In this document: piece by piece, positions 36,994 through 54,411 of the stretch
Layout: each line of letters opens with the position of its first letter
Position numbering within the stretch: the first letter of the stretch is position 1
From: an uncultured Gammaproteobacteria bacterium
GTDB taxonomy: Bacteria; Patescibacteriota; Microgenomatia; Levybacterales; UBA12049
Length of the DNA stretch: 61,807 bases
Assembly (NCBI GenBank): GCA_964603935.1
Contig: CAZRWL010000003.1
Span: 1 to 61,807, forward strand
Direction: 5' to 3'
Made by a program: the position numbers and the translations under genes
Notes under the pieces: generated by a model
Told to the model about the DNA's origin: nothing
Databases searched by the model: none
The model's input: only the letters and a program-made list of their open reading frames with translations

Positions 36994-37004
36994 AATTTCC
37001 TCCT

Positions 37005-37673: not shown

Positions 37674-37679
37674 GAGGGT

Positions 37680-38255: not shown

Positions 38256-38261
38256 ACATTC

Positions 38262-38375
38262 AATAACCCAATACTACCAGTAAACAAATAGTCCAATCAA
38301 TAAACCAATTCCCAATTCTAAATTCTGTATTTTACATTGATTTGTTTATTGGGTTATTTGCCTATTTGTTTATTA
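38262..38375. repeat. REP-C element (divergent copy)
   Basis: aataacccaatactaccagtaaacaaatagtccaatcaataaaccaatt ... ttacattgatttgtttattgggttatttgcctatttgtttatta. The right arm supplies the last tmk codons (VINK stop). Confidence 0.7.
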
Positions 38376-39039
38376 CCGAAATAATCTCGGTTGTTACTTC
38401 TCCCACCTCTCCCTCCCCATCCACAACCGTTATTTCTTTGCCAAACTTCCCCGCCAGCCAATCATAGCCTTCAATTACTTTCCTAAGCTTTTCCGAATCT
38501 TCATAAATTTCCTTTACATCGTCTTTTCCTGAAATTCTGAAGATGGCTGTTTGCAGAGAAACTTTCAGCAAAAAAGTGTAATCCGGCACTATGAATTGAT
38601 GATACATTGATAAAATTGACTGGGAGATAAGCAGCGCGTCTGCCATTCTGTAATCATAATCATTTTTCATCCTGTCCAAAATCCCGTACACAACCGCGGA
38701 CCAAAAGCACCTGTCCGAAATTACGACACTTCCCGCTTGAAGAGCCGGGATAATTACTTCCTCCTGATGCAAAACGCGGTCTGTGGAAAATAAATATTGA
38801 AGAGCAACCGAGGACATTTTTATTTTCCCGGTTAAAACTCTCTGGATAATGTCTCCAACCAGCCCATCTCTTCTCGGTTCCCGCGTTCTCACCACCAGCC
38901 TTCCTTTTTTCTCAAAATATTTTGCCAATTTTTCGGCTTGAGTTGTTTTTCCCGACCCGTCAATTCCCTCCAGGACAATGTACAACCCTTTGTACGGATT
39001 TCTTTTGAGGTCAATGTCTAATTCAACGTGATACTTCAT
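38362..39039 (-). CDS. tmk: thymidylate kinase
   Basis: P-loop EGIDGSGKTTQ and a DR(C/Y) motif (ISDRCFWS). Confidence 0.9.
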   Translation of the reverse strand: MKYHVELDIDLKRNPYKGLYIVLEGIDGSGKTTQAEKLAKYFEKKGRLVVRTREPRRDGLVGDIIQRVLTGKIKMSSVALQYLFSTDRVLHQEEVIIPALQAGSVVISDRCFWSAVVYGILDRMKNDYDYRMADALLISQSILSMYHQFIVPDYTFLLKVSLQTAIFRISGKDDVKEIYEDSEKLRKVIEGYDWLAGKFGKEITVVDGEGEVGEVTTEIISVINK

Positions 39040-39043
39040 GCGT

Positions 39044-39150
39044 TAATACTACCAATACTACCAATTTCAAATACTACCAATCAATCATCAAATATAGAAT
39101 TTTAAATTTTGCATTGATTTGCATATTGGGTTATTTGTTTATTGGGTTAT
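39044..39150. repeat. REP-C element
   Basis: taatactaccaatactaccaatttcaaatactaccaatcaatcatcaaatatagaat ... tttgcattgatttgcatattgggttatttgtttattgggttatttt. The right arm encodes the dcd C-terminus (NNPINK stop). Confidence 0.8.
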
Positions 39151-39715
39151 TTTCCTCGTGTATTCTGCTTTCGTTCGGGCCGTTTTGAATTTTGTATTTT
39201 GCTTGGGCTTTTTTCGCGTATGGAACTTCCGCGGCGCTTGTTAGTTCTTCAAAAGTCATGGCGCAAATTCTCATTCCCGGAGTTAATTTGACAGCCATTC
39301 TTCCCAAATTACCAAGCTCCAAAACGCATTTCCCGTCCCATCCCGGATCAAAAATTGAAGCTGTTGAATGGACAACTATTCCTAGCCTTCCCAAAGAACT
39401 TCTTCCTTCAAGCCTGCCCATCAGATCCGGGGCGATTTTTACTCTTTCCAAAGTTACAGCCAGCACGAAATCTCCGGGCTGCATCACAAAACTTTCTCCT
39501 TTTTTCACTTTTACTTCTTTGGTAATTTCGTTGGAATAATCTTTTTTTGCGGGATCAATGTAAGCGTTTCTGCTGTGGTCAAAAACCCGGAAAGTACTGC
39601 CAAGACGAAGATCAATGGAGCAAGAACCAAGCTGAGTTTTCAGATCGGGTTTGGGAGTGATAATAATTCTGTCTTGCAGAAAAGCTTTTTTAATATCCCC
39701 ATCCGCCAAAATCAT
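39131..39715 (-). CDS. dcd: dCTP deaminase
   Basis: GSCSIDLRLG and GRSSLGRLGIVVHSTASIFDPGWDGKCVLELGN, with the catalytic Glu retained. Confidence 0.9.
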   Translation of the reverse strand: MILADGDIKKAFLQDRIIITPKPDLKTQLGSCSIDLRLGSTFRVFDHSRNAYIDPAKKDYSNEITKEVKVKKGESFVMQPGDFVLAVTLERVKIAPDLMGRLEGRSSLGRLGIVVHSTASIFDPGWDGKCVLELGNLGRMAVKLTPGMRICAMTFEELTSAAEVPYAKKAQAKYKIQNGPNESRIHEENNPINK

Positions 39716-39770
39716 AAAATGAGTTTATCAGGAAAACCTGCATTTGTGAAGAGGAAAAAACCAATTATTA

Positions 39771-42173
39771 TTATTTACCCTTAACTATTAACTTTACTCC
39801 TCTTTTGATCATTTCCGTAACAAATAACTGCCACGCCACATCATCAATCAAAGCGTCAACAATCTTTTGACCATTCCTTCTTTTTGCCACTAAATCTGGG
39901 TATTTTTTACCTATGGCATTCAAAGATTGCTCAACCAAATCTCCCCACCCATCATTTCCTCTAAGATTAAATGTTGAGCTGATGTAGTTAAGACTTGTTA
40001 AGTGATCCGTACTTTTTACATCCTCTAGCTGCGACTGTAAATATGCTCCCTTTTTACACATTTCTTTAATAAACAAATCTCTGTCTGTAACCGCAACTAT
40101 AGTCTTTGTATGATTCTTTCTCTGCGCTATTAAATCTGGATTTCTCTCTCGCACAGCCTGCAAAGCTGCATCTATTATGTGTTTCATCTTTTCATTCCCT
40201 AAATTAATAAATGTTTCATTAAGATTGACCTGATTTATCGCAAAATCCGTTTCCCTAATATTTTCAACGGGTTGTTTTAAAACAACCTTCAGCTTAATCA
40301 TTTCATCAATAAACCTTTGCCTATCTGTAACTACATCAACAGTAAATCCCTTACTGCTTCTTCTTACCGCTACCAATTCTGGATTTTTTTCCCGTATTGC
40401 TTTTAAAGCTTGATCAGCTAAAGATCTAAGCTTTGAAGAGTTACCTTCAAATGCTGACTTAAGACTGATAGTATTTACGGCAAAATCAGTTACTTCAACA
40501 TCCTTTATGTCAATCCGTCTTGCAACAGCTCCCAATTTAACCATTTCATCTATAAACCTTTGCCTATTCGTAACTACATCTACAAGTCTTTTGCCATTCC
40601 ATCTTTTTAGCACTAAGCCTGGGTCTTCTTCCCACATCAATGTTAACGCCTTCTGACGCAAGCTCAATGCCTCTTTCGATCTTATTCCAACGAACATCTC
40701 CTGAAGAGTATCTATGTCTACTGAAAAGTCTGTTTCCTGTACTTCCAATAGCCCTTCTTTTTGCAATTCGCTAAGCGGTTTTATATCGGCTTGTTTCCCC
40801 ATAGATTTCACTTGAGATGATTGAGTTAGCTTATTGATATCTGCTTCGCGGCCAAGATACAAAAGACCATTATTGAGCTGTTTCACATTTTCTTTCATCC
40901 ACATTCCCATGTTGTATGACCAGTTATATTGGTTGGTTTGATACAAAAAGTCCAGTATTGTTCCGTACGCCTTGCCTTCAGCGTTTCTCGCAAGTCTTCC
41001 CGTATACTGTGTGTATCTTAATTCGGAATCGGTTGGCGACGCCCAAACAAGCGCTTCTGTGGCAGGCGCGTCAAATCCTTCACCCAAAATATAAGGAGAT
41101 ACAATTACCTGCAAGCTTCTTTCATCTTTTTCAGGAAGTTTATATCTTTCTATGCTATCTAGCGCGGGTATTTCTTCCGAATGTATCTGCCTTGCTGCCT
41201 GCTGATTTACCGCAACTCCTACTTTTATACCTTTTGCTTTCAATAATCTTGCCAGCTCCTCTGCTTCCCATACGAAATTAACTGCAATAACTGTTTTGTA
41301 ATGCTTTCCTTCAGCAGAGATAACTCCCGCTACTTTGTCTGCAATACAAGGTCTTAGATTGGGGCTTTCTTTGAGAAGTCTCTCAAGCTTAACATAGTCA
41401 ATTTTTCCATTCATTGTCATTGGAACCTCCTTAACAAGGCCGGATGTATCTACTTGCATTCCGATAAGAGGGGGAAGAAAACCTAAATTTTGCGCTTCAG
41501 GCAATGGCAAAGATTTTACTATTTTAAACCCATAATCCTCAGGATTTCTCAATACTCCGGAGTGTCTATACGCGGTGGCTGTAAAACCAACAGCATTTTT
41601 GAATTTTTCAACAGTTGCTTTCCTCAATGGAGTCCCCATGTTATGCACTTCATCAACAATGCAAAAATAATCATCGGGTTTTAATAATCCTCTTCTTATT
41701 TGAGACTGTACGGTCTGAATAGTCGCTATATGAACATTTGAATTCTTATCTCCTAATTCCCCCGTCTTGTACAAAAAAGGCTTTTCATCTACCAAAGGAT
41801 TTTCATCTATAGAAGTTGTTTCCGATGTTAGTCTATCGTCATCTTCGGACTCCATATAGCCCTCCAAAGCTTCATGAGATTGCTCAACGAGAGTAGTTTT
41901 TGTTCCGGCAATAAGAAGAACTTTAGAATGCCTATCTCTGCGCATTTGTTTTTCTATTATTCTGTGAATTACGTTCCCTTTCCCAAAACCCGTTGCCATT
42001 GCAGCCATTGGGAATGGATCACCTTCTTTCCTCTGATCCAGATAGTCAATGCAGGTGTTCGCAGTTTCTTCTTGAATATGATTGCGAAGCTGTTGCTGTT
42101 CCGGAGTTAAAAGACCGTCTTTGCCGGCCTCGCCTGTAAAACCGTGAATTGTCCGCTCTTGACTTGCTAGCAT
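39771..42173 (-). CDS. SF2 (DEAH/ResIII-type) helicase with four tandem ~80-aa C-terminal repeats
   Basis: Walker A ATGFGKG, DEVH box (IVDEVHN), motif III GFTATA, motif V GEGFDAP and motif VI YTQYTGRLAR. Residues ~476-800 form four repeats sharing TDF..., ...NP(E/D)L(V/I)..R, and VVTDRQRFIDEM.K. Confidence 0.8.
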   Translation of the reverse strand: MLASQERTIHGFTGEAGKDGLLTPEQQQLRNHIQEETANTCIDYLDQRKEGDPFPMAAMATGFGKGNVIHRIIEKQMRRDRHSKVLLIAGTKTTLVEQSHEALEGYMESEDDDRLTSETTSIDENPLVDEKPFLYKTGELGDKNSNVHIATIQTVQSQIRRGLLKPDDYFCIVDEVHNMGTPLRKATVEKFKNAVGFTATAYRHSGVLRNPEDYGFKIVKSLPLPEAQNLGFLPPLIGMQVDTSGLVKEVPMTMNGKIDYVKLERLLKESPNLRPCIADKVAGVISAEGKHYKTVIAVNFVWEAEELARLLKAKGIKVGVAVNQQAARQIHSEEIPALDSIERYKLPEKDERSLQVIVSPYILGEGFDAPATEALVWASPTDSELRYTQYTGRLARNAEGKAYGTILDFLYQTNQYNWSYNMGMWMKENVKQLNNGLLYLGREADINKLTQSSQVKSMGKQADIKPLSELQKEGLLEVQETDFSVDIDTLQEMFVGIRSKEALSLRQKALTLMWEEDPGLVLKRWNGKRLVDVVTNRQRFIDEMVKLGAVARRIDIKDVEVTDFAVNTISLKSAFEGNSSKLRSLADQALKAIREKNPELVAVRRSSKGFTVDVVTDRQRFIDEMIKLKVVLKQPVENIRETDFAINQVNLNETFINLGNEKMKHIIDAALQAVRERNPDLIAQRKNHTKTIVAVTDRDLFIKEMCKKGAYLQSQLEDVKSTDHLTSLNYISSTFNLRGNDGWGDLVEQSLNAIGKKYPDLVAKRRNGQKIVDALIDDVAWQLFVTEMIKRGVKLIVKGK

Positions 42174-42265
42174 ATCCGTATTGTATCAAATAACCCTATA
42201 GTTATCAAGCCTGGACGAAATCGTAAAATGGGTTTACCACAAAGAAAATTTTTTACCAATTGTCA

Positions 42266-42946
42266 TTAATCCGGACTCAAACGCATCAGTATTTCTTTGT
42301 ATGTAGGCAGAATTGCTGACAGCGCTTCTCCTGCTAAAGGCTGTAATTCGTAAATAAATACATAAACCGCCTGAGGCAAAAGCGCACGTTGATAAGAAGA
42401 TCTTTGAATAAAAGATAAAAATGTCATATCTCTCTTTTCGCTTCTTTCGCTCAAGATGCTTCTTATAATTTGCGTTTGCTCTTGAGACGTACGCAATCTC
42501 GAACCATCCTTTTGCTGATGCCTCCTTAATGCAGCTTTGATGTCTGTTAATTTAGCTTGAGGTATAGGCGTTCCCTTAACTGTTTCATTCAGATTGTCAA
42601 CAAAAACCTTATCATCCCATCCAAAAACCCCTTGCTCCAAAGCATGCAATACGCTTCCTAATATAACCTCACCAAAACCATATAGAAATTTTTCTTTTGA
42701 CCAATCGTTTAATCCACTGACAATAGATTGCATACTTAAGGTATCGGAATTGCCGGACAGCAATTCTTTCAAGTTAGCGCTTCCTTCATCTTTCATAACC
42801 AATCCAAGGGCAACAGGTTTTGAAACCGCATTTCCCCCCATTTTCTGTTCCTGCCATCTTTTTTCGGCTTTATCCGCAAGTACTTCAGGTATTTCAAAAT
42901 GCTCACCCCTCAATAGGGGAAATTCAGGCCCATTCATAGAAAACAA
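42266..42946 (-). CDS. hypothetical protein upstream of the helicase
   Basis: ORF only, on the same strand, 92 nt upstream of the helicase start. Confidence 0.4.
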   Translation of the reverse strand: MFSMNGPEFPLLRGEHFEIPEVLADKAEKRWQEQKMGGNAVSKPVALGLVMKDEGSANLKELLSGNSDTLSMQSIVSGLNDWSKEKFLYGFGEVILGSVLHALEQGVFGWDDKVFVDNLNETVKGTPIPQAKLTDIKAALRRHQQKDGSRLRTSQEQTQIIRSILSERSEKRDMTFLSFIQRSSYQRALLPQAVYVFIYELQPLAGEALSAILPTYKEILMRLSPD

Positions 42947-42960
42947 ATTCTACCATAGAT

Positions 42961-43019
42961 TTATTTTTTATCCAAACCGTTAATTAAACCCCTTATCTCC
43001 CCAACCAAATATAAAGTCC
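42961..43019 (-). pseudogene. relic of a folC/Mur-ligase 3' end
   Basis: The minus-strand translation ...TLYLVGEIRGLINGLDKK-stop contains a 25-nt exact copy (42992-43016) of the folC codons for LYLVGEIR at 47161-47185. Confidence 0.55.
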
Positions 43020-43089
43020 TTATCACCATTGACGGAAACGCAAAAGGTATGTAACATTAAATACAATTAACAGAAATTAGTTTTCAATT

Positions 43090-43806
43090 ATGACTCAAGA
43101 AATTGCAACAAAAATAGCAGTCTTTCAAAAAAAAGAGATACGCAAAATCATCCATAAAAATGAATGGTGGTTTTCAATTATAGATATTATTGAAGCTTTA
43201 ACTGGTACAAAAAGACCAAGAAAATATTGGAATGATCTCAAAAAGAAACTAATAAAAGAGGGTTATTCCGAAGTGTCCGAAAATATCGGACAGTTGAAAA
43301 TAACCGCTCCAGATGGGAAAAAACGAGAAACCGATTGCGCCAACACGGAAACTGTTTTTCGTATAATTCAAACCATCCCGTCATCTAAAGCCGAGCCATT
43401 CAAGCGTTGGTTAGCAAAAGTGGGATATGAGCGAGTGCAAGAAATTGAAGATCCGGAACTTGCAACTAAAAGAACCAAGATGCTCTATAAGCTTAAGGGG
43501 TATTCTGAAAATTGGATAGAAAAACGAATACGTGGAATTGCTATCCGCGAAGAATTGACGGATGAATGGCAAAAACGAGGCGTAAAAGAACAAAAAGAAT
43601 ATGAAATATTAACTGCCGAAATTTCCAAAGCAACCTTCGGCGTGACACCGAGTGAATATAAAAAATTAAAAGGACTGAAGCGGCAGAATTTACGCGACCA
43701 CATGAATGACTTGGAATTAATTTTCAATATGCTCGGTGAGCGAGTAACAACAGAAATCTCTCAGCAAGAAAAACCGGATAAACTATTTGCCAAAATCAGA
43801 AGATAA
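43090..43806 (+). CDS. Bro-N domain / DinD-like (phage antirepressor-type) protein
   Basis: FQKKEIRKIIHKNEWWFSIIDIIEAL... and KAEPFKRWLAKVGYERVQEIEDPE are typical of Bro-N family proteins. Confidence 0.65.
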   Translation: MTQEIATKIAVFQKKEIRKIIHKNEWWFSIIDIIEALTGTKRPRKYWNDLKKKLIKEGYSEVSENIGQLKITAPDGKKRETDCANTETVFRIIQTIPSSKAEPFKRWLAKVGYERVQEIEDPELATKRTKMLYKLKGYSENWIEKRIRGIAIREELTDEWQKRGVKEQKEYEILTAEISKATFGVTPSEYKKLKGLKRQNLRDHMNDLELIFNMLGERVTTEISQQEKPDKLFAKIRR

Positions 43807-43856
43807 AAAAATATTGAAATAATATTCTGTAGTATTAAATACAATCAAGATAATTT

Positions 43857-46800
43857 ATGTTTGCAAGAATCCGAGAAAAAGTAATTGCCCTCAGACAAAA
43901 AATCGCCCTCTCTAATAAAAAACTCATCGGTCTTGTCATAGTCCTTCTTACGGTAATCGCATTGCCTTTAATAGTTATTGCCTCCCAGCAAGAACAGGAT
44001 ATCCGCCAGCACGCCTCCGAACCAACATCTTCGCCTAACTTAACCAATCAACAAGAGGCATCATCTGCGACGACTAAAGATGCCGAACAAATTGAACTAC
44101 TAACTAATCAATTATTCCAATTCAATAAAAAACTAACTGGCGATGTAGGATCTTTATCGGAAGAAGATCAAACAGCGAGAAACAGGGCAACCGCTAATCT
44201 TACAGAAATAGCTAAAAAGCGAAAGGCTTTACTTCTACAAGTTATAGAAGAAGACCCGGAACTCTTTTTGTCTATTGCTTTGAAACAGACTATGCAATCC
44301 TCCATGCCTGCTGCAATTCAAGAATATCTTGAAAAGGAAGTGACTGTTGAAGGGAAAACAGAAGTGCTTCATATTGATGATTTTAAAAATCCCGCTAATT
44401 CCAGATTCAATTATTTTTTGAAGATAGGCAATGAGAAGATTAATTTATTTCCTACTCAAGAACTTCCCATTCCATCCGGGGTTAAAGTCAGAATTAAAGG
44501 CATTCAATTGGATAACAATATCGTTACAACTGCAGATAGCATGTCTTTTCAAGTTTTGGAAGCAGCGCCCAAACCCGAGTCAGTCGGAGATCAGAAAACA
44601 CTGGTACTGCTCATACGATTCAAAGATTCAGGAGATCCTCCTTTCACCAAAGAAAAAGCCCATGATCTTATTTTTAATGGGCAATTCCAGAAATTTTACA
44701 AGGAACAATCATATAATCAAGTTTCTTTCAGCGGAGATGTATTCGGATGGTTTTCTTTAACATACAATAATACTCATCAAGCTTGCGATGTCATTTACAG
44801 CAAGACTATTTCTAACGTCATTGATATTCCCAAACTTGTTGCTGACAACAATATTGAATTGGGAATCTACAGCCGGCTTATTTTTGTGGTTGACACTAAT
44901 TATAGCGGATGCTCTTTTGTTGGAACATTTGAAACAACTATTAATGGTAAAACTTATCGCTTCTCCGAAGCTGCTGTTGGCGCTCATAATTACACTAACC
45001 CCTGGTTCAATCACCCGTTCGAATGGACAGAGCTTGATTTCACTTTAAGTCACGAGTTGGGACATAGTCTTGGAGTGCTACACGCAAATGGCTGGGACTG
45101 TAAGGATCAGACATTATACGGGGACTGCACTCATATAGAATACGGCAATTATTTTGATACCATGGGGATTGGCTCATTTTCGCTTCACTTCAATGCTTTC
45201 TACAAAGAACTGCTTGGCTGGATGAATTCTTCTTCGACTTTACTAATCAGCACTTCCGGCGTGTATACACTTAACCCTTTGGAATTAGATTCGGATAAAA
45301 AATTCGCCAAAATACAGATTCAAAACTCCAATGTTATCCCTTATGATTTGGAATATAGAAAAGGCATAGGCTTTGATGCAAATCTCAATAATGTCACGCT
45401 CTTATCTAACCAATCAGGCTTATTTATTAACCACATAATGACAGACCCTGCATTACCATTAAATTATTCTTATACTCATCTTTTAGATATTACTCCCTCA
45501 TCAAAGTTTTGGGCTGATGATATCGACGACGCTGCATTAAATGGAGAAAAGATTTTTACAGACCCGGGCAGAGGAATAGCGATTGGCCCCATCATAAAAA
45601 CAGACGCATCTTCTATAACTTTTGAAGTTAATCTTGCCATTCCATCTTGTGTTCGTCAGAAACCTTTGGCAAGCACTGTTTATATTTCTAACCCTGTGGT
45701 AGCCGGAGGTTTTGGCACCATAGATATCAAGCTTACGAATGCCGATGGCTTTGGTTGCGGCGAATCAAAATTCCATATAACACCCACCTTACCCTTAGGC
45801 TGGAAAATAATTGACATACATCCTTCCGACAATATCGTTATTGATGCAGACGGAAAATCTTCCATATATATTACTTTTAATCCTCCTGAAAATACTCCGG
45901 TTGGTGATTATTCGTTGAGTTATGATATTGTAAACCTACAGAGCGGTCTTAAAACGCATGCAGAACTTACTACAACAATTAAGCCTGCTCTTAAGATTTC
46001 GAAAATTGATCCGCAAACAGGAAATATTGGCACAGAAATTACAATTTTTGGCTCGGGATTCAGCGAAGACGCAAGCTATAATAAAATCTCTTTTTCTAAT
46101 CCCCAAGGATATGCGATAACCAATTCAAAATTATTTCAATTACCAACTAATGAACAGGTATTAAAATTTACTGTTCCGGAGACAATATGCGCAAGCGGTG
46201 GATTGGGTGCTCCTGGAATACTTGGAGGGGGATGTTCGCCTAAATCAACCCCTTCGGGTACTTACGGAATAAATGTATACAATGACTTTAGTGGCAGTAA
46301 TACTATGAACTTTCAGGTTATTGAACCTCCCACCCCCACCCCGGACTTAACCCCTATCCCCATCAACTGGAAAACTGATTCTGTTTCTCTTCAAGCTGAC
46401 AATTTCTTTATTAAAATGGACAATAGAATATTTAAACCAAACTCTAACTTTAAACTTCATTCAGATTCAGGTAAACCAACCTTCACTACCAGCACTCTAG
46501 AAGCAACGTGGCTTGAGGGAAAAACAGAAATGAGACTTTTTATCTACTTTAGCATTGATGCCAACAATCAATGGAAGGTAACAGAAATGAGAACGTATGA
46601 CGGCAAGACTCCCGGAAATTGGCTATACTATTTAGGAGGAGAGTCAGGCAAACTCGGCGTTCCATTTGCTAACAGCAACTACAGTAAGCAAAGCAAAGAC
46701 GGCAAAGGATATGTTAATTTTGGAAAAATAAAATTAGAGCCCTTCTTAAATCTTGTCACTCCCACCCCAACTCCTAAGCCAACGGCTACTCCTACACTCA

Positions 46801-47153
46801 AACCTACACCAACACCCACCCCTATTCCCGTAAAAACAGTTAGCGTTTTAAATAAAGGAAGTTTTCCATTGTCAATTATAAATGTCTCTGATTCCAGCAT
46901 TAACTTCACATGGAGAGATATTGGCACAGCTTACAAATATACTGTTGAATATTTCTATGGAGCTGCCAATATAAAATATAGTGTAAATAATACTCTTTCT
47001 TTATCTCCTGTTACCGCTCCTCCCGTTAATAGGCAGTATAAAAGTACGGTTAATTTGAGCACAAAACAAAGTATGCATATGCGAATGAAAGCTTGCAGAG
47101 GAATAAACGCTAATTGTTCATTTTCGGATGAACTTTTTATCACTACTAAATAG
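43857..47153 (+). CDS. large secreted/anchored metzincin-like zinc metalloprotease with IPT/TIG and Pro/Thr linkers
   Basis: N-terminal signal anchor, HELGHSLGVLHA (HExxHxxGxxH), an IPT/TIG-like segment KISKIDPQTGNIGTEITIFGSGF, and TPTPTPKPTATPTLKPTPTPTP linkers. Confidence 0.7.
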   Translation: MFARIREKVIALRQKIALSNKKLIGLVIVLLTVIALPLIVIASQQEQDIRQHASEPTSSPNLTNQQEASSATTKDAEQIELLTNQLFQFNKKLTGDVGSLSEEDQTARNRATANLTEIAKKRKALLLQVIEEDPELFLSIALKQTMQSSMPAAIQEYLEKEVTVEGKTEVLHIDDFKNPANSRFNYFLKIGNEKINLFPTQELPIPSGVKVRIKGIQLDNNIVTTADSMSFQVLEAAPKPESVGDQKTLVLLIRFKDSGDPPFTKEKAHDLIFNGQFQKFYKEQSYNQVSFSGDVFGWFSLTYNNTHQACDVIYSKTISNVIDIPKLVADNNIELGIYSRLIFVVDTNYSGCSFVGTFETTINGKTYRFSEAAVGAHNYTNPWFNHPFEWTELDFTLSHELGHSLGVLHANGWDCKDQTLYGDCTHIEYGNYFDTMGIGSFSLHFNAFYKELLGWMNSSSTLLISTSGVYTLNPLELDSDKKFAKIQIQNSNVIPYDLEYRKGIGFDANLNNVTLLSNQSGLFINHIMTDPALPLNYSYTHLLDITPSSKFWADDIDDAALNGEKIFTDPGRGIAIGPIIKTDASSITFEVNLAIPSCVRQKPLASTVYISNPVVAGGFGTIDIKLTNADGFGCGESKFHITPTLPLGWKIIDIHPSDNIVIDADGKSSIYITFNPPENTPVGDYSLSYDIVNLQSGLKTHAELTTTIKPALKISKIDPQTGNIGTEITIFGSGFSEDASYNKISFSNPQGYAITNSKLFQLPTNEQVLKFTVPETICASGGLGAPGILGGGCSPKSTPSGTYGINVYNDFSGSNTMNFQVIEPPTPTPDLTPIPINWKTDSVSLQADNFFIKMDNRIFKPNSNFKLHSDSGKPTFTTSTLEATWLEGKTEMRLFIYFSIDANNQWKVTEMRTYDGKTPGNWLYYLGGESGKLGVPFANSNYSKQSKDGKGYVNFGKIKLEPFLNLVTPTPTPKPTATPTLKPTPTPTPIPVKTVSVLNKGSFPLSIINVSDSSINFTWRDIGTAYKYTVEYFYGAANIKYSVNNTLSLSPVTAPPVNRQYKSTVNLSTKQSMHMRMKACRGINANCSFSDELFITTK

Positions 47154-48668
47154 ATAGCTTCTTATCTCCCCAACCAAATATAAAGAACCCGTAACGACAA
47201 TAATTGCCCTATTGTTAAATTGCTTCATTGCTAAATTGCTCATAACTAATGCTTTCTCCAGGGCTTTTTGCGAGTCTTTTTCAACGGCAACCTTAACATC
47301 TTTCTTAATACTTAATACTTCATACTTAATACTTTCCGCGTCCGCGGAAGCGTGTAAGCTAACATCTGTTTTTGCGCTAAACTCCGTAACAATAATTTCA
47401 TCCGCTACTTTTACAATTTCCCTAAGCATTTTTTTAATATCTTTATCGAATTTAAAACCAATTATAAAAATCTTCTTTTTTTTTGGGAAGAGTTTTTTAA
47501 GACTTTTTAGAAACTCTTTCATTTTTACGGGATTATGCGCGCCGTCGAGAACAATTGTTGCCTTCTTGTCATGCTGAACTGGTTTCAGCATCTCATTCTT
47601 TCGTAAAGAGACCTGCCTGCGGGCAGGAGATCCCGAAACAAGTTCGGGATGACATTTTATAACCTCAAACCGCCCCGGGAAAAAGGCTGTTGACAAAGCT
47701 TTTCTAATATCTTTTTCCAAAACTTTCTTGTCCCTCGAAGCTTCAGCGAAGTGGGAAAACCCAAACTTTTTTAATTGCAATACTGCTTCAACTGCCAAAC
47801 TCGCATTCTCTTTCTGATAATCTCCCAACAAAGATAATTTGTAATTTTCAATAATTGACTCATCAAAATCTTTTCCAAGTCTGAATAATTTTGCTCCAAC
47901 CTTTTCACATCTATCTTCAATTATTTTAATTACCGAAGACTTCTTTACTCCCGATATGACAACTAAAGGGGTGGCAAAAGAGGAAGGGCTCCCGACAGCG
48001 CGGACTGAGCCTGTCGAAGGAGCACTGGCGGGAGGGATTACTTTTGACAGGACCCCGTGTAATTTTATAATCCCCGCTTTGGTTCTGGCGATTTTCTCAA
48101 TTGTTTTTCCCAAAATATCCGTGTGGTCCAAACCCACATTAGTCAGAACCGCAACCAAAGGATAAAGCGTGTTCGTCGCGTCAAACTCCCCTCCCATCCC
48201 CACTTCCGCAACCGCGATATCTACTTTCCGGTCTACAAAGTATTTAAACGCCATTGCTATTAAAATCTCAAAATACGACGGAGCTCCAACCGGCATCTTC
48301 CTCATTAGTTCAATAGTCTGAATCATTGAACTGACAATGTCCGTAAATTTTTCATCCGAAATTTGCTCCCCATTTATTTGCAATCTTTCATTTACTTTTT
48401 GCAGGTGCGGGGAGATTGTTAAACCAACCTTATAACCTGCGGTTTTCAAAATATGGGAAATTAGATATGCAGTTGAACCTTTCCCTGATGTTCCGCCAAC
48501 CAAAATTGATTTAAATTTTTCCTGCGGGTCCCCCAAAAGAGACAAAAAAATCCGCATTCTTTCCAGCGGATCATGATGTCTTAGGAATTGCGGATCGATT
48601 TTATAATAAATCTTTCCAATAAAACTTTCCAGATATTCCAGGGCTTGCTTATAATTATTAGTCTTCAT
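47118..48668 (-). CDS. folC: folylpolyglutamate synthase / dihydrofolate synthase
   Basis: Mur ligase P-loop GTSGKGST, with FPGRFEVI ... LDGAHNP. It contains complete REP-A and REP-B copies in-frame. Its last 14 codons lie antisense to the end of the metalloprotease gene. Confidence 0.9.
   Translation of the reverse strand: MKTNNYKQALEYLESFIGKIYYKIDPQFLRHHDPLERMRIFLSLLGDPQEKFKSILVGGTSGKGSTAYLISHILKTAGYKVGLTISPHLQKVNERLQINGEQISDEKFTDIVSSMIQTIELMRKMPVGAPSYFEILIAMAFKYFVDRKVDIAVAEVGMGGEFDATNTLYPLVAVLTNVGLDHTDILGKTIEKIARTKAGIIKLHGVLSKVIPPASAPSTGSVRAVGSPSSFATPLVVISGVKKSSVIKIIEDRCEKVGAKLFRLGKDFDESIIENYKLSLLGDYQKENASLAVEAVLQLKKFGFSHFAEASRDKKVLEKDIRKALSTAFFPGRFEVIKCHPELVSGSPARRQVSLRKNEMLKPVQHDKKATIVLDGAHNPVKMKEFLKSLKKLFPKKKKIFIIGFKFDKDIKKMLREIVKVADEIIVTEFSAKTDVSLHASADAESIKYEVLSIKKDVKVAVEKDSQKALEKALVMSNLAMKQFNNRAIIVVTGSLYLVGEIRSYLFSSDKKFIRK
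47161..47185. repeat. 25-nt exact direct repeat partner of 42992-43016
   Basis: cttatctccccaaccaaatataaag is present at both coordinates in the same orientation. Confidence 0.9.
47568..47654. repeat. REP-A element (complete), in-frame inside folC
   Basis: gtcatgctgaactggtttcagcatctc ... ctgcctgcgggcagg ... gagatcccgaaacaagttcgggatgaca. It is translated as CHPELVSGSPARRQVSLRKNEMLKPVQHD. Confidence 0.85.
47968..48055. repeat. REP-B element, in-frame inside folC
   Basis: ggggtggcaaaagaggaagggctcccgacagcgcggactgagcctgtcgaaggagcactggcgggagggattacttttgacaggaccc. It is translated as PPASAPSTGSVRAVGSPSSFAT. Confidence 0.85.
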
Positions 48669-48686
48669 GAATATTGAATAATGCCC

Positions 48687-48715
48687 TTGACTATTTTAGA
48701 GTTTTCCATAATAAT
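48687..48715 (+). promoter_or_regulatory. candidate promoter of the hyf-like operon
   Basis: TTGACT lies at 48687-48692, followed after 16-17 nt by TAATAA/AATAAT, with a TGgTATATT slightly downstream. Confidence 0.4.
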
Positions 48716-48767
48716 GGTATATTGTTGATTTCATAGTTAAAGATTCCTTCTTTGGTCTTCAAAGTAA

Positions 48768-49316
48768 GTGAATCCAATCACTTACATGTTATCATTTTAT
48801 TATAAAATTGCGAGCACCAAACCCACACTTATATCCCTTGATTCCTTGAGGACTCAAGAGGATTTGGCAATTATCAAGAAAAATCTTAGCGAAAAAGTCA
48901 AAAAAATATTTAAAGGATCGTTGGCGATTAGAGAAGTTGATGCCGGCTCTACAAATGCTTGCGAGCAGGAACTAAATGCGTTAACCAATACTTTTTATGA
49001 CATTGAGCGGTTCGGAATTCATTTTGTCGCATCCCCAAGACATGCTGACATGCTTATAGTTACGGGACCTGTTACCAGAAACATGGAATATGCTTTGAAA
49101 AAAACCTATGAAGCAACGCCGGACCCAAAGATTGTTCTTGCTTTGGGAAACGACGCGATTGACGGCGGAATATTTAAAGGGTCTTACGCTGTTTTAGATG
49201 GAGTTCACAACGTAATACCGGTTGATTTTCAAATACCCGGAGATCCCCCAACAGCCAAAAACATATTGCGCTCACTCTTGCGAATTTTGGAAATTATAGA
49301 AAAAAATAAAAGTTAG
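48768..49316 (+). CDS. NuoB/HycG-like small subunit lacking the canonical 4Fe-4S cysteines
   Basis: ERFGIHFVASPRHADMLIVTGPVT is diagnostic of the NuoB/hydrogenase small-subunit family. The expected CxxC, GxC and GCPP appear here as AGST, GND and GDPP. Confidence 0.8.
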   Translation: MNPITYMLSFYYKIASTKPTLISLDSLRTQEDLAIIKKNLSEKVKKIFKGSLAIREVDAGSTNACEQELNALTNTFYDIERFGIHFVASPRHADMLIVTGPVTRNMEYALKKTYEATPDPKIVLALGNDAIDGGIFKGSYAVLDGVHNVIPVDFQIPGDPPTAKNILRSLLRILEIIEKNKS

Positions 49317-49324
49317 TTATTGTT

Positions 49325-51358
49325 ATGCTCTACGTATTTATTTTGCTGTTAAGTATTTTTTTTGCGGGCGCGCTGGGGTCGCTTCTTCTTCAGAAAAAAG
49401 AAAATCATGCGCATCTTTTTGCCGGTGTTTTTGCAATCACAGGATCACTAGCGGGAATCCTATTTTCTTTTTCCCTGCTTTTTACTCAAGGTAAATTCTC
49501 AGCAACAATTCCCACCTCTTTCCCTCTTTTAAAAATTTCCTTAAATATAGATTCTCTTTCAGCGCTTTTCATTTTAATAATTTCTACTGTTGCGCTTTGC
49601 TCCTCTATCTATGGGCTATCTTACATGAAACATTATTATCAAAAATATAACGTTGGCTTATTCGGCTTTTTTTATAACCTTTTTATCCTAAGCATGATTT
49701 TGGTTGCAACCGCAAACAACGGCCTTTATTTTCTATTTGTCTGGGAACTGATGTCTTTAGCTTCGTTTTTTTTGGTTATTTTCGAACATGATCGCAATGA
49801 GACAATACGAAGCGGTATTATTTATTTCATTATGGCTCACATCGGGACTGCTTTTATTCTTCTGGCATTTTTAATGCTTTATATTTCTACAGGCTCTTTT
49901 GAGTTTTTGGCAATTAAAAAAGCTTCAGGATCCATGCCTTTGCTCATTAAAAACGTTGTTTTCATACTAATGCTTCTGGGTTTCGGGACAAAAGCCGGAA
50001 TAATTCCGCTGCACATTTGGCTGCCCAAAGCTCATTCCGCTGCCCCTTCCCAAGTGTCATCCCTCATGTCCGGCGTGATGATAAAAATGGGAATTTTTAT
50101 GATGATAAGATTTTTTGTGGATATTTTTACACAAGCTCCGTTGTGGTGGGGTTTGACCATGCTTATAATAGGCGCTATTTCATCTGTTCTGGGAGTACTT
50201 TATGCTCTTTCAGAACACGACATAAAACGTCTTTTGGCATACCACAGCATTGAGAATGTAGGAATTATTTTACTGGGAGTCGGAGCGGGAATTACTTTTG
50301 CCTCTCTTGGTCTCTACTCATTTGGGGCGCTGGCAATTTTGGCCGGATTGTTCCATACGATAAACCATGCTATTTTCAAATCGCTTTTGTTTTTCGCGGC
50401 AGGATCCGTAATCAATCAAACGCATACCAGAAACATTGAAGAATATGGAGGCCTGATAAAACTCATGCCTTATACCGCTGTCTTTTTCCTGATCGGAAGT
50501 ATCGCAATTTCAGGGCTGCCTCCTTTCAATGGTTTCGTAAGCGAGTGGTTAACTTTCCAGGCTCTTTTTGCCGGCATTGGCTCAACTGTAGTTATTATCA
50601 AAAGTGTTTTTATTTTTGCCGCTGTCTGCCTTGCTCTAACAGGAGGACTTGCGGCTGCCTGTTTTGTCAAAGCCTTCGGTACGGCTTTTCTGGCCAGACC
50701 AAGAAGCAAAGAAGCAGAAAAAGCAAAAGAATCCGAATTCAGCCTTTTGTCCGCAATGGCTATTCTCGCATCGCTTTGCCTTGCCCTTGGAGTCCTCTCA
50801 AGCTTTTTTATTCCAATACTTACGAGGGTTTCACAAAGTCTTGGAAATTTTTCCTCAAAATCAACAGCCATCTCAACCAATTTAATATCTATCAGCGTTA
50901 ATAATAATTTCGGTCTTCTGAATATGCAGGCCGTATTGGGGGGATTATTACTGGCGCTTATTCTTGTTTTTATCGTTATTTATACATTCACAGGGAAACA
51001 AAAGATCAAATTTTCAGAAACCTGGGCCTGCGGTTTTTATTCTATAAATCCAAAAGCGGAAATCACTTCTACCGGTTTCTCCAGATCTCTTATTCTTATA
51101 TTTAGAGGCATCTTCCAACCGACAAAACAAAGTACTATGGACTATGTTGACGCGGATATCCGCTATTTTACAAAATCCAAAACTATCACCTTAACAACTG
51201 CAAATCTATACGAAAAATATATATATTATCCGGCCCAACGGATATTATTTTCTTTATCAAGACAGGTAAAGAAAATCCAAAGCGGGAACATTAATCAATA
51301 CCTGCTGTACATTTTCATAACGCTCATAGCCCTTCTTGTTTGGGCAAGATTTTTTTAA
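49325..51358 (+). CDS. HyfB/HycC/NuoL-like antiporter-type membrane subunit
   Basis: 677 aa and multi-TM. The pattern GTKAGIIPLHIWLPKAHSAAPSQVSSLMSGVMIK is typical of proton-conducting NuoL/M/N subunits. Confidence 0.85.
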   Translation: MLYVFILLLSIFFAGALGSLLLQKKENHAHLFAGVFAITGSLAGILFSFSLLFTQGKFSATIPTSFPLLKISLNIDSLSALFILIISTVALCSSIYGLSYMKHYYQKYNVGLFGFFYNLFILSMILVATANNGLYFLFVWELMSLASFFLVIFEHDRNETIRSGIIYFIMAHIGTAFILLAFLMLYISTGSFEFLAIKKASGSMPLLIKNVVFILMLLGFGTKAGIIPLHIWLPKAHSAAPSQVSSLMSGVMIKMGIFMMIRFFVDIFTQAPLWWGLTMLIIGAISSVLGVLYALSEHDIKRLLAYHSIENVGIILLGVGAGITFASLGLYSFGALAILAGLFHTINHAIFKSLLFFAAGSVINQTHTRNIEEYGGLIKLMPYTAVFFLIGSIAISGLPPFNGFVSEWLTFQALFAGIGSTVVIIKSVFIFAAVCLALTGGLAAACFVKAFGTAFLARPRSKEAEKAKESEFSLLSAMAILASLCLALGVLSSFFIPILTRVSQSLGNFSSKSTAISTNLISISVNNNFGLLNMQAVLGGLLLALILVFIVIYTFTGKQKIKFSETWACGFYSINPKAEITSTGFSRSLILIFRGIFQPTKQSTMDYVDADIRYFTKSKTITLTTANLYEKYIYYPAQRILFSLSRQVKKIQSGNINQYLLYIFITLIALLVWARFF

Positions 51359-51361
51359 AAT

Positions 51362-52288
51362 ATGGTATTGTTATTTTTACTTAAATTATTTTTAATCCCG
51401 ATGCTTTCCCCTCTTTGCGTGGGAATTATAAGAAAAGTAAAAGCGATAATGCAGAACAGGAAAGGCGCATCCATAATGCAGCCGTATTTTGATTTATATA
51501 AACTCTTTCATAAGGATGAGGTTATTTCCAAAAACGCATCATGGATTTTCCGCTTTGCTCCTTATCTTATATTTGCCATAAGCATACTAATACCTCTTGG
51601 AATTCCCCTGATAGCAAGCGCCGAATCAATCTCGCCTATTAGCGATTTCATAGTTATTGTTTATTTGCTTGCTCTTTCAACTTTTTTCTTAAGCCTAAGC
51701 GGAATAGATGTCGGGAGCGCTTTTGGAGGATTCGGGTCAAGCAGGGAAATGACACTTTCCGCTCTTACCGAAGGCGTGCTTATGTTTTCTATGATCCCAA
51801 TTGCGCTTATAGCCCAAACAACCAACTTAACCATGATGGCCGCTACAGCATCTTCTCTGCCTCTAAATGATTTCTTCCCAATCTCCATTGCTTTTGTAGG
51901 ATTTTTTATTGCGATGCTCTCTGAAACAGGACGAATTCCTTTTGATAATCCCGCGACTCATTTGGAACTGACAATGATCCATGAGGCAATGATCTTGGAG
52001 CATTCAGGCAAGCGTTTGGCTCTTATCGAATGGGCGTCAGCCAACAAACTTCTGATTTTTGCAGCCTTAGGTATAAACATGTTCTTTCCCTGGGGAATAG
52101 CTCATGACTTGACTTTGGATAAAATCGCAGTTTCCTTATTTTTTTTCCTTGTGAAGCTCTTGATTCTTATCGCCGCTATAGCCTTTATGGAGTCTAGCAC
52201 TGCGAAATTCAGACTCTTCAGACTGCCTGATGTTTTGTTAACAGGATTGATATTTGGCATAATCGCCATAATCACAACAATTATTTAA
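51362..52288 (+). CDS. HyfC/HycD/NuoH-like membrane subunit
   Basis: The pattern ETGRIPFDNPATHLELTMIHEAMILEHSG is characteristic of HycD/NuoH. Confidence 0.85.
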   Translation: MVLLFLLKLFLIPMLSPLCVGIIRKVKAIMQNRKGASIMQPYFDLYKLFHKDEVISKNASWIFRFAPYLIFAISILIPLGIPLIASAESISPISDFIVIVYLLALSTFFLSLSGIDVGSAFGGFGSSREMTLSALTEGVLMFSMIPIALIAQTTNLTMMAATASSLPLNDFFPISIAFVGFFIAMLSETGRIPFDNPATHLELTMIHEAMILEHSGKRLALIEWASANKLLIFAALGINMFFPWGIAHDLTLDKIAVSLFFFLVKLLILIAAIAFMESSTAKFRLFRLPDVLLTGLIFGIIAIITTII

Positions 52289-52289
52289 T

Positions 52290-52949
52290 ATGGAAATCTT
52301 AAATATGCAAACCGTATTTGTTTTCGAAGCAATCATTTTCGTATCAGCGGTTCTGATGCATGTTGTCAAAAGAAATTCTACGATAATTATTATTTATCTC
52401 TGCCAGTCACTAGCCCTGGTCGGACTTTTAGGCATTCACGCTTACCAGGAACAATCTACCGGCTCTTTCCTGATTGCATTAATTGTTCTTGTGATCAAAG
52501 TTCTAATTGCGCCAAGATTTTTCCTAAGACTGATTAATCGCAGCCACCAGAATCTTTCCGCTTCTACCTACATCAATGTCCCCATGACATTGGGTGTAAT
52601 AATCGGATTAATTTTCTTCGCTCAATCAGACATTTTCTCCCCCTTTAACAAGCTCCTGGGAGAAATGCCTGCACTGCGTATGATGCTTATATCTGCTATT
52701 TTCATATCTTTATTCCTTACGATCAACAGAAAAGGAGTTTTATCTCAAATTATAGGAGTTCTGTCTTTGGAGAATAGCATTGTGGCATTCGGATTTTTCG
52801 TAGGATTACGCCAGCCTTTTAACCTTGAACTGGGAATACTTTTCGATATTCTGATTTTGGTCATAGTTTCAACGGTTTTCGTATCAATGGTCTACAGACA
52901 ATTTGATTCTTACGATGTAACTCGCATGAAGCATCTTAAAGAGGAATAA
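52290..52949 (+). CDS. HyfE-like small membrane subunit
   Basis: 219 aa and multi-TM, with a LSLENSIVAFG motif resembling HyfE. Its position in the operon matches hyf order. Confidence 0.65.
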   Translation: MEILNMQTVFVFEAIIFVSAVLMHVVKRNSTIIIIYLCQSLALVGLLGIHAYQEQSTGSFLIALIVLVIKVLIAPRFFLRLINRSHQNLSASTYINVPMTLGVIIGLIFFAQSDIFSPFNKLLGEMPALRMMLISAIFISLFLTINRKGVLSQIIGVLSLENSIVAFGFFVGLRQPFNLELGILFDILILVIVSTVFVSMVYRQFDSYDVTRMKHLKEE

Positions 52950-52953
52950 TTTT

Positions 52954-54411
52954 ATGATACTATCTTTAGTTATTTTAGTGCCGTTGGCAGCTTCCATCCT
53001 TTCGCTTCTTGTAGCAAAAAGAGCGAAAAATTTATACAGAATAGCTGCTGCTGCCTCTTTCATTGAGCTTGCGGCTTCTTCAGCCGTAACTTATTCAATC
53101 GCAGTGAATAATTCTCCTTTCTCATGGACGCCTTATTTCTCGGTTGATTTCTTGGGAGCAATTTTGCTGATGTTGGTTGCAATCGTGGGACTTGCAACAT
53201 CAATATATTCTATCGGATACTTTAAAGCCGAAGTAGATAAAAAAATTATCGGCTTTCACAGAGTGAGAGAATATTTCATACTTTTGCATTTATTTTTAAT
53301 GGCAATGTTTTTTGCGATAACCACAACAAGCCCGGTTCTGATGTGGATTGCCATTGAAGCTACAACTCTCTCAACAGCCTTCCTCATAAGTTTTTATAAT
53401 AAGCCATCTGCCATGGAAGCGGCATGGAAATATCTGATTATCAATTCTATCGGACTTTTAATAGGATTCCTGGGCACATTGCTCTTTTTATCTATTGTTT
53501 CCCACCCCTATCCTATAAATTTAATAGACTGGAGCGCATTGGCAAAAAATGCTTCCAATGCAAATCCCCTTATAGTTAAAATTGCTTTTGTTCTTGTATT
53601 GATCGGGTACGGAACAAAAGTCGGGCTTGCGCCCATGCACACATGGCTGCCGGATGCCCACAGCAAAGCACCTGTACCTTTAAGCAGTCTTCTTTCCGGA
53701 GTCTTATTAAATGTTGCTTTCCTTGCAATCATACGTTTCAAAATAGTTACCGACTTGTCCGTAGGAGCTAACTTCTCACAAGGACTTCTGATATTCTTTG
53801 GAATTTTGTCTATCGTAATCGCCTCCCTTATTATTCTTATGCAGAAAAATTATAAGAGGCTTTTGGCGTACTCAAGCATTGAACATATGGGAATTATTGC
53901 TTTGGGATTTGGATTTGGAGGCATTGGAATTTTCGCGGCATTATTGCACATGGTATACCACTCGCTCGCAAAATCCATGCTGTTTTTAGCCTCAGGAAAT
54001 ATTTTCCTGAAATATAGTACCACTAGAATATCAAGCACAAAAGGAGCGATCTTCGTTCTCCCCGTTACGGGAGTTCTGTTCCTTGCCGGATTTTTGGCTA
54101 TAACAGGAATTCCGCCCTTTGGCACGTTTCTGACCGAGATATACATTGTTTCGGCCGGACTCAAAAATCATCCTGTCATTGTAATCACTGCTATTATCGC
54201 GCTTACTCTTGCTTTCGTAGGTTTTCTAAGAAGCGTTTTCTCTATGGCTTATGGCGAACCCGGAGAAATTACAAAAGGAGAGAAAAGCAAATGGACTACT
54301 CTTCCTCTGATTGCTATATTTATTATCTTGCTTGCATTAAGCTTATATTTGCCTGACTTCATAAAAGTCTTCATACAAAATGCCAGCGCTTTGATTTCTA
54401 AAACCATATGA
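52954..54411 (+). CDS. HyfF/NuoN/M-like antiporter-type membrane subunit
   Basis: GTKVGLAPMHTWLPDAHSKAPVPLSSLLSGVLLN. Confidence 0.85.
   Translation: MILSLVILVPLAASILSLLVAKRAKNLYRIAAAASFIELAASSAVTYSIAVNNSPFSWTPYFSVDFLGAILLMLVAIVGLATSIYSIGYFKAEVDKKIIGFHRVREYFILLHLFLMAMFFAITTTSPVLMWIAIEATTLSTAFLISFYNKPSAMEAAWKYLIINSIGLLIGFLGTLLFLSIVSHPYPINLIDWSALAKNASNANPLIVKIAFVLVLIGYGTKVGLAPMHTWLPDAHSKAPVPLSSLLSGVLLNVAFLAIIRFKIVTDLSVGANFSQGLLIFFGILSIVIASLIILMQKNYKRLLAYSSIEHMGIIALGFGFGGIGIFAALLHMVYHSLAKSMLFLASGNIFLKYSTTRISSTKGAIFVLPVTGVLFLAGFLAITGIPPFGTFLTEIYIVSAGLKNHPVIVITAIIALTLAFVGFLRSVFSMAYGEPGEITKGEKSKWTTLPLIAIFIILLALSLYLPDFIKVFIQNASALISKTI

Follow-up and report, generated by a model that had tools for sequence, protein, structure and literature searches.

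We describe an island of two accessory genes that lies in the last codons of folC, a gene of the folylpolyglutamate/dihydrofolate synthase family, in a Candidatus Levybacteria genome. The DNA analysed comprises positions 1 to 61,807 of contig CAZRWL010000003.1 (assembly GCA_964603935.1) and is referred to throughout, at its full length of 61,807 nt, as the window. Comparison with related loci shows that positions 43017-47160 are to be read as a horizontally acquired insertion, with the native tail of folC displaced and with the tail that folC now carries having arrived together with the insert. This demonstration relies on a relative that retains the empty site, on further relatives in which folC is followed by dcd, and on a second assembly that contains both junctions. 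The inserted cassette is 4144 bp long (4169 bp including one copy of the repeated core) and carries a Bro-N/DinD-like gene and a gene for an M6-like zinc metalloprotease. Since it encodes no recombinase of its own, the cassette is non-autonomous.

The island is bounded by a 25-nt sequence, CTTATCTCCCCAACCAAATATAAAG, of which the window has exactly two copies (42992-43016 and 47161-47185), both on the plus strand in direct orientation. No further copy is present in the window even when three mismatches are allowed, 100 dinucleotide-preserving shuffles yielded no match, and the bases flanking the two copies diverge at once (c/t before and t/a after). Read on the minus strand, the right copy forms an in-frame part of the live folC gene (47118-48668, minus strand, 516 aa; Mur_ligase_M and Mur_ligase_C domains, TIGR01499), where it runs from the second base of the Ser495 codon to the second base of the Arg503 codon within TGSLYLVGEIR and is read as IIVVTGSLYLVGEIR-SYLFSSDKKFIRK followed by a stop codon. 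The left copy, also read on the minus strand, is separated from the body of folC and encodes TLYLVGEIR-GLINGLDKK with a stop codon at 42961-42963, so that the displaced native tail, (R)GLINGLDKK plus stop, occupies 42961-42991 (minus strand). A promoter-like site for the neighboring gene ORF226, TGGATA-16-TAGAAT (42974-42947), overlaps this displaced tail. The cassette-borne replacement tail, SYLFSSDKKFIRK plus stop, occupies 47118-47160 (minus strand) and over 47118-47153 is antisense to the last 12 codons of the 1098-aa metalloprotease, whose stop codon is followed by only 7 nt before the right repeat begins. About 130 nt of the 4144-nt island are non-coding. An earlier note on this DNA, made from the sequence by itself, had described an exact 25-nt direct duplication at these two positions, with LYLVGEIR encoded near the folC C-terminus, a current folC that continues into island sequence antisense to the protease end, and an island of exactly two genes that starts with the Bro-N promoter (a promoter-like site is found at 43029-43057) and ends 7 nt after the protease stop. 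Each of these points agrees with our analysis, and the motif at the folC end proves to be the conserved (S)LYLVGEIR; the possibility raised there that the 25-mer is a dispersed repeat does not hold, as the window has only these two copies. Direct GATAAGG motifs that lie beside the left core were judged too short for interpretation.

Both junctions are also present in an independent assembly, GCA_016204565.1, that is 99.98% identical to the window, with 5 SNPs (single-nucleotide polymorphisms) over 25.6 kb. Contig JACQKM010000012.1 of that assembly corresponds to window positions 33090-46661 and holds the left junction, while JACQKM010000005.1 corresponds to 46619-58668 and holds the right one; each junction is identical over at least 40 nt on both sides, and the assembly is broken only in the Pro/Thr-rich region of the protease gene. 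No record identical to the folC protein of the window was found, and a near-identical protein led to JACQKM010000005.1. Because both junctions recur in this second assembly, an assembly artefact or chimera is very unlikely to be the source of the structure.

For comparison, loci around folC were fetched from other genomes, 16 from species-representative genomes and 80 from metagenomes, with gene order determined by tblastn; these loci are labeled with L-numbers. In L045, whose folC is 65% identical to the window gene over its C-terminal part, folC ends with GEVRDLINPLVKK and a stop codon (in a longer reading, TGSLYLVGEVRDLINPLVKK and stop), followed by the spacer ATTTATGGTAGAATTTGTTTTCTATG and then by a homologue of ORF226. 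The left site of the window likewise ends with GEIRGLINGLDKK and a stop codon (in a longer reading, LYLVGEIRGLINGLDKK and stop), followed by ATCTATGGTAGAATTTGTTTTCTATG, a spacer that is nearly identical to that of L045, and the native tail GLINGLDKK is orthologous to the real folC tail of L045, DLINPLVKK. In a three-way alignment L045 matches the right site of the window upstream of the core, that is, in the folC body, and matches the left site downstream of the core, that is, in the tail, the spacer and the start of ORF226. It is this switch that identifies the displaced tail as native and the current tail as derived from the insert, and in terms of alignment L045 and the window are related as a classical attB is to attL and attR. 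The empty site that the earlier note had proposed to look for, and with it its claim of an original folC end at the left site, is thereby confirmed, with L045 showing a contiguous folC, a native-type tail, the spacer and the ORF226 homologue.

Gene order in other relatives points in the same direction. ORF226 itself (42266-42946, its end also given as 42937; minus strand; 223-226 aa, no family match) has homologues after folC in L045 (45% identical) and in L001 (30% identical), both of which have the order folC-ORF226-dcd, with the ORF226 homologue starting 15 nt after folC. By this synteny ORF226 is the ancestral downstream neighbor of folC in this lineage. In L002, L003, L004, L023, L024 and L052 folC and dcd are directly adjacent, and dcd is followed by tmk and a second dcd-like gene where the contig reaches that far (L023 stops within dcd); in the window dcd, tmk and the second dcd-like gene occupy 37680-39715. 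The Bro-N gene, the protease gene and an 800-aa helicase gene discussed below are absent from the folC position in all eight of these relatives (L001-L004, L023, L024, L045 and L052), which speaks against the two island genes being ancestral there.

The target gene has been left intact, its end being supplied by the cassette-borne tail. Identity to the folC protein of the window reaches at most 66% among the closest matches, and the named ones are mostly from Candidatus Levybacteria, of the candidate phyla radiation (CPR)/Patescibacteria. Among 60 folC relatives the sequence TGSLYLVGE[IV]R hardly varies and precedes a tail that is short and variable, and in 34 folC relatives the motif at the core shows little or no variation; the two window tails, which lie past the Mur-ligase C domain, are 9 and 13 residues long. 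Native-type tails in relatives include RGLLRK, RGLLTKF and RDLINPLVKK, while tails of the incoming type, RSYLI and RNYLFKK, occur in other folC genes, and DKK is common to both window tails in the same register (positions +7 to +9 after the Arg). Because such incoming-type tails are known in relatives, because the DKK register is shared, and because the tail is interlocked with the 3' end of the protease gene, the cassette-borne tail looks like a genuine foreign folC end from another lineage. Being interlocked in this way, the tail is an integral part of the cassette. We considered whether the DNA for the LYLVGE motif might be unusually conserved, as a dedicated recombinase target might be, and rejected this, as synonymous sites vary freely across folC genes; in this comparison TATTTGGTTGGGGAG is common only to the window and L093/L094. 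Degenerate folC-tail remnants, which tandem accretion of cassettes might have left, were sought at 39000-42960, where only chance 7-11-mers were found.

The two cargo genes do not travel together elsewhere. The Bro-N/DinD-like gene (43090-43806, plus strand, 238 aa) matches phrog_15286 (E = 9e-81) and the PADLOC candidate defence family PDC-S13 (E = 4.5e-105), with a weak DinD-like match in its C-terminal part. More than 8000 relatives were found, some of which lie in viral contigs and beside type IV secretion system (T4SS) genes. Other CPR phyla, such as Magasanikbacteria and Jacksonbacteria, have relatives with 93-96% protein identity, and L018 from Magasanikbacteria, the sole relative compared at the DNA level, is about 88% identical in DNA. 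The window protein of 238 aa compares with about 278 aa in relatives, with about 107 nt deleted near the 3' end and the frame shifted. The similarity between Bro-N loci (43075-43826; L018-L020 and L103-L110) extends from about 15 nt ahead of the ATG to about 20 nt past the stop. Elsewhere the gene usually lies after HinfI-like and HNH genes and before fragments of an N6_N4 methyltransferase gene; it is otherwise found by itself between recG and nusB, followed by a methyltransferase remnant. The Bro-N gene looks like a gene-sized mobile unit. A similarity between 43050-43084 and 43828-43862 (35 nt, 77%) was considered as a scar of Bro-N insertion and set aside as a likely promoter resemblance, its longest exact run being 12 nt.

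The second gene (43857-47153, plus strand, 1098 aa) encodes an M6-like zinc metalloprotease, predicted to be membrane-anchored at its N-terminus, with a HELGH motif, a TIG domain and a Pro/Thr-rich linker; the M6/reprolysin signal itself is weak. Its nearest homologues, which are 52-59% identical, come from other CPR genomes, where they adjoin neither folC nor Bro-N, and no relatives were found in viral contigs. Since the nearest homologues of each gene lie in unrelated contexts, Bro-N and the protease are not a conserved pair. PDB sequence searches with both proteins gave no matches. The earlier note had proposed to assess 43017-47160 for compositional deviation, and none is present: GC content is 0.377 in the island and averages 0.385 over the window, and the island's GC, its GC at third codon positions and its tetranucleotide (4-mer) distance are all ordinary for the window.

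The island genes were scanned with Pfam, NCBIfam, PHROGs and PADLOC, and 60 open reading frames (ORFs) covering the window were scanned with Pfam; no tyrosine or serine recombinase was found in either set, in agreement with the statement of the earlier note that no integrase is present. The only transposase-type genes lie outside the island, namely an insertion sequence (IS)-type helix-turn-helix (HTH) plus rve pair at 56084-57200 and a Y1 (IS200-like) gene at 28631-29314. Insertion of the island as a transposon or IS was rejected, with no transposase and no terminal inverted repeats in the island, and with two different folC tails following the two cores, which is impossible by target duplication. 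An integron gene cassette with an attC site was also rejected, as neither junction folds (z-scores of +1.1 and -0.3) and no integrase is encoded in the window. An exact search for the 25-mer in metagenome and viral contig collections returned no match, the source contig being among the misses, and so yielded no second integration, attP or empty site at strain level; viral contigs also contained no DNA pattern for TGSLYLVGE[IV]R. With both the motif pattern and protease relatives absent from viral contigs, there is on these searches no evidence for a phage that carries this att site. Integrase-bearing versions of the island, which the earlier note had proposed to search for, were not found, nor was a free attP; and viral contigs, 100 folC loci and the window itself showed no related integrative and conjugative element (ICE) or integrative and mobilizable element (IME) with the same att site (range at most about 10 kb).

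The island thus shows part of what defines an integrative element, in that it has border direct repeats, one of them in a gene 3' end, and an empty site in relatives, and lacks an encoded recombinase. The earlier note had read the structure as the footprint of site-specific integration into the 3' end of a gene. Insertion at the folC 3' end stands, and site-specific recombination is only one possible route to it: no recombinase is present, similar scars occur at other gene ends with different cores and always without an integrase, and the footprint fits a single homologous crossover with circular DNA equally well.

These other scars were recognized by defining a scar as the duplication of a gene end around a small accessory cassette, with the cassette-borne copy joined to the gene. 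The window and all fetched loci were screened, in a manner that sees only repeats less than about 10-15 kb apart. Two further scars were found in the window and three in other CPR loci, which together with the folC island makes six. At the protein level, in-register duplicates of a tail plus stop among 2794 ORFs were found downstream in 3 cases, upstream in 0 and on the opposite strand in 0. An exact core of 22-41 nt is kept in four of the six scars. None of the six cassettes encodes an integrase, and their core sequences are mutually unrelated.

The first of the additional scars in the window affects a Complex1_30kDa/49kDa-type gene (54408-55979), whose tail is duplicated at 55923-55979 and 59361-59417 around a cargo at 55980-59360. 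The tail DFPLINKSFNLSYSGNDR plus stop recurs 3438 nt downstream as DFPIINKSFNLSYSGSDR plus stop, a duplication of the last 18 codons and the stop codon, with a 31-nt exact core; six of the eight sense codons that differ are synonymous, and the stop codon differs as well. Its cargo consists of the IS-type HTH plus rve pair already mentioned, two small ORFs and a SoFic-like Fic/MarR gene (58271-59293). The second concerns the start of dcd, imperfect copies of which (39709-39730 and 42218-42239) surround a gene for a ResIII helicase (39771-42173; 800 aa, ResIII/DEAD, with weak PbeA and type IV restriction matches). In the upstream copy ATG is replaced by ACG, and the sequence then runs into the ancestral ORF226-dcd spacer that is seen in L045; this case is a 5'-end version of the scar and looks older.

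The three remaining scars lie in other CPR loci. In L093 (7573-7636 and 8139-8202; also in L094, from another CPR lineage) hicB and hicA lie at the folC 3' end within a 566-nt cassette, flanked by a 64-nt repeat of which the first 41 nt are exact, and the downstream tail, ending in WKLPDF and a stop codon, matches the native tails of L088, L046, L056 and L101, in which folC is followed directly by pgk. In L036 (13211-13245 and 13969-14003) vapB and vapC (MazE-like and PIN) lie in the duplicated tail of an Rce1-like gene of the CAAX protease family; the two copies of the tail FWNMTVALYL plus stop differ synonymously, the 3' end of vapC overlaps the supplied tail, and the 758-bp cargo consists of the toxin-antitoxin (TA) pair with almost no spare DNA. 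In L045 (3140-3215 and 3605-3679) a GIY-YIG gene (3256-3549, minus strand) with flanking palindromic repeats lies between two tails of dcd2, which are identical at 16 of 18 protein positions and about 70% identical in DNA, with a longest exact run of about 9 nt; the displaced dcd2 tail is identical in protein to the dcd2 tail of the window. The differences between copies are mostly synonymous, which shows that both copies evolved in functional genes and that the cassettes bring with them an orthologous gene end from another genome.

Three other matches were not counted. In L040 (14994-15013 and 16176-16195) hicA and hicB lie between two paralogous genes for surface proteins, in which 20 nt encoding DQILSTF are exactly the same; the upstream paralogue ends shortly after these 20 nt, and this ambiguous case may be a mid-gene version of the same process. 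The matches in L007 and L098 are a dispersed palindromic element and a repeat domain, respectively.

Considering these observations together, we regard it as reasonably probable that the folC island arose when a circular, non-autonomous cassette bearing a foreign folC end underwent one reciprocal (Campbell-type) crossover in the 25-bp core. The cassette would have arrived as circular or circularisable DNA with two accessory genes and its own copy of a folC 3' end, composed of the 25 bp for (S)LYLVGEIR followed by the foreign tail SYLFSSDKKFIRK and a stop codon. One crossover inside the 25 bp of identity would join the folC body to the cassette tail, and would move the native tail GLINGLDKK, with the second core copy before it, 4.17 kb downstream, where it would still precede ORF226. 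The crossover could be carried out by the general recombination machinery of the host acting on identity of minimal length, or else by a recombinase supplied in trans, and the conserved protein motif would matter only by keeping a short stretch of donor and recipient DNA identical. Host recombination, or otherwise a trans-acting recombinase, is the most likely agent on this evidence, and an integrase once carried on the cassette is probably not, because the scar recurs at other gene ends, one of them a 5' end, with different cores, and because the smallest cargos (hicBA, 566 bp) seem to have lost nothing. A further reason is that genes for homologous recombination and competence are reported to be kept in Patescibacteria (PMC12455944).

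Several considerations weigh against this crossover model. No circular form, free junction or second integration of the cassette was found in our searches. A core of 25 bp is at the lower limit for RecA-type recombination, the minimum for which Shen and Huang are said to have placed in 1986 at about 23-27 bp in E. coli. The L045 dcd2 and helicase cases have no long exact core (9 and 7 nt, respectively), and are better explained by an illegitimate join at one end than by a clean Campbell crossover. Additionally, the scar scan is blind to large integrase-bearing elements and is biased to small cassettes, and a trans-acting integrase may be encoded beyond the 61.8-kb window.

The strongest competing explanation is that the island is a decayed integrative element, namely a prophage, ICE or IME whose tyrosine integrase recognized the 3' end of folC, and which was later internally deleted until only attL, attR and two cargo genes were left. 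We consider this unlikely. In its favor, the direct repeat, the restored gene end and the displaced native end are the exact footprint of integrases that target 3' ends. Remnants of this type, cis-mobilizable elements (CIMEs), are defined by the loss of integration and transfer genes and the retention of attL and attR (PMC5704250), a description that the folC island fits. Decay within the island is evident from the deletion of about 107 nt in Bro-N, relatives of Bro-N occur elsewhere in viral contigs and beside T4SS genes, and large intact elements would have been undetectable by the scar scan. However, no integrase, excisionase, replication, capsid or transfer gene was traced in the island, only about 130 of the 4144 nt are non-coding, and the replacement tail is interlocked with the 3' end of the protease gene. 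No integrase is encoded in the 61.8-kb window, and neither an integrase-bearing version nor a copy of the core elsewhere was found. The five further scars have other cores and are all free of integrases, and two of them are simply TA pairs of 566 and 758 bp, both with hardly any DNA to spare.

A second alternative, which we rate as less probable still, is homology-facilitated illegitimate recombination during natural transformation, a process said to have been described by de Vries and Wackernagel in 2002 in naturally transformable bacteria. Here a linear fragment of another Levybacteria genome, with the protease and Bro-N genes downstream of folC, would have been anchored by homologous pairing in the folC body, and its far end joined illegitimately just upstream of LYLVGEIR, so that the intervening segment was duplicated. 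Such an event requires neither a circle nor an identical core and would account for the L045 dcd2 and helicase/dcd cases; synonymous differences show that both copies derive from functional orthologues, and both competence and the retention of recombination genes are reported for Patescibacteria (PMC12455944). As with the folC island, foreign DNA is placed beside a conserved anchor gene with no element-encoded enzyme. Against it, the join would have to hit the last 25-75 nt of the anchor gene every time, and at a random illegitimate end recipient DNA is usually deleted rather than duplicated. This route does not predict a 25-bp core duplicated exactly; exact cores of 22-41 nt are retained in four of the six cases, as expected from a crossover within identity, and no microhomology is evident at 43016/43017.

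That there was no insertion at all, the repeat being due to chance, to a chimeric assembly or to an ancestral arrangement lost by relatives, is barely credible: in its favor the island is known from only one species-level lineage, and against it stand 0 matches in 100 shuffles, both junctions in a second assembly 5 SNPs apart, a left site whose folC tail and spacer are orthologous to those that follow folC without interruption in L045, the absence of both genes from the folC position in eight relatives, and the unrelated contexts of the nearest protease and Bro-N homologues.

Comparison with known systems places the folC island, as far as its structure can tell, as a non-autonomous att-flanked island that combines structural features of CIMEs and of C-terminal displacement. 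Like a CIME (PMC5704250), it has direct-repeat borders at the 3' end of a housekeeping gene, an end restored by element DNA, and no integration or transfer genes. Unlike a CIME, it has no known cognate integrase-bearing element for its core and no remnant of a mobility gene, and its architecture recurs within one genome at several unrelated gene ends including a 5' end, which is unexpected from one att specificity. The displacement of Rhs C-termini, for which the same model of a circle and a single homologous crossover has been proposed (PMC2935791), is similar in that a new 3' end with cargo is joined at a short conserved coding stretch, and in that the old tip, behind a copy of that stretch, is shunted downstream with no need for a dedicated recombinase. 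The folC island shows both a displaced old tip behind a copy of the conserved stretch and a new tip that came with cargo. It differs in that folC is a housekeeping enzyme, that the swapped tails are functionless stretches of 9-13 residues rather than a toxin domain with its immunity gene, that the cargo (Bro-N and protease) is unrelated to the gene, and that the shared stretch is only 25 bp.

The microcin H47 island of E. coli is also small, flanked by direct repeats and without its own recombinase, and it depends on host functions, its recombination requiring neither RecA nor any of the site-specific recombinases known in E. coli K12 (PMC3191183, PMC5426353). Unlike the folC island, which is known from sequence data only, its excision and integration have been shown experimentally, and its repeats are long, imperfect and intergenic. 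Islands and prophages that encode an integrase target the 3' ends of protein or tRNA genes, as for example ICESt1/ICESt3 at fda. These share with the folC island a repeat from the gene 3' end, a replacement end supplied by attP and an empty site in relatives, and differ from it in carrying an integrase and phage or conjugation genes, none of which it has.

The folC island represents a clean gain, verified by an empty site, beside an essential gene that was left undamaged and with no mobile-element machinery visible. Less expected is the density and uniformity of the integrase-free scars, about six in roughly 0.6-1 Mb of CPR sequence. All of their cargo is of the defence, TA or selfish type, comprising the PDC-S13 Bro-N gene, the SoFic-like gene, the ResIII helicase, hicBA, vapBC and GIY-YIG. 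We tentatively raise the possibility, which as yet falls short of an even chance, that CPR/Patescibacteria routinely gain such small cassettes without an element-encoded recombinase, by way of copies of host-gene ends of about 20-75 nt. If so, host recombination would splice the cassettes in, perhaps after uptake by natural competence, and the folC island would be one instance of an event found roughly once per 100 kb, at both 3' and 5' gene ends. Duplicated gene ends would then provide a simple, annotation-free marker of recent gene gain in metagenome-assembled genomes, and competence with short-homology recombination, rather than integrases, would be suggested to shape the CPR accessory genome as a distinct and simple route of gene gain in reduced genomes. 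For annotation, there is the practical warning that such genes may end in foreign residues, and that short orphan gene ends are scars rather than genes.

Other repeats and accessory genes were observed in the window. A strongly folding (z -4.5 to -6.7) palindromic repeat of about 93 nt is dispersed at 12707, 14000-14094, 15670-15762, 16370-16463, 23196, 35278 and 47560-47654, in intergenic positions and also in frame inside folC. A 69-nt repeat, 93% identical between its copies, lies in frame in both folC (47969-48037) and the dnaX-like gene at 14103-15629 (14420-14488). Both repeats resemble elements of the REP (repetitive extragenic palindromic)/RPE (Rickettsia palindromic element) type inserted in coding sequence, and the product of the Y1 (IS200-like) transposase gene could be the enzyme associated with them. 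An intergenic repeat of 77 nt, 90% identical and rich in TACCAAT, is found at 17882-17958 and 39044-39120 (also 38321-38374), upstream of tmk and near a HIT-family gene. The only Rfam match in the window is tRNA-Ile at 61001-61072. Lastly, a PD-(D/E)XK nuclease gene (29878-30291) lies between rpsB and tsf, as a small accessory gene in a conserved operon.

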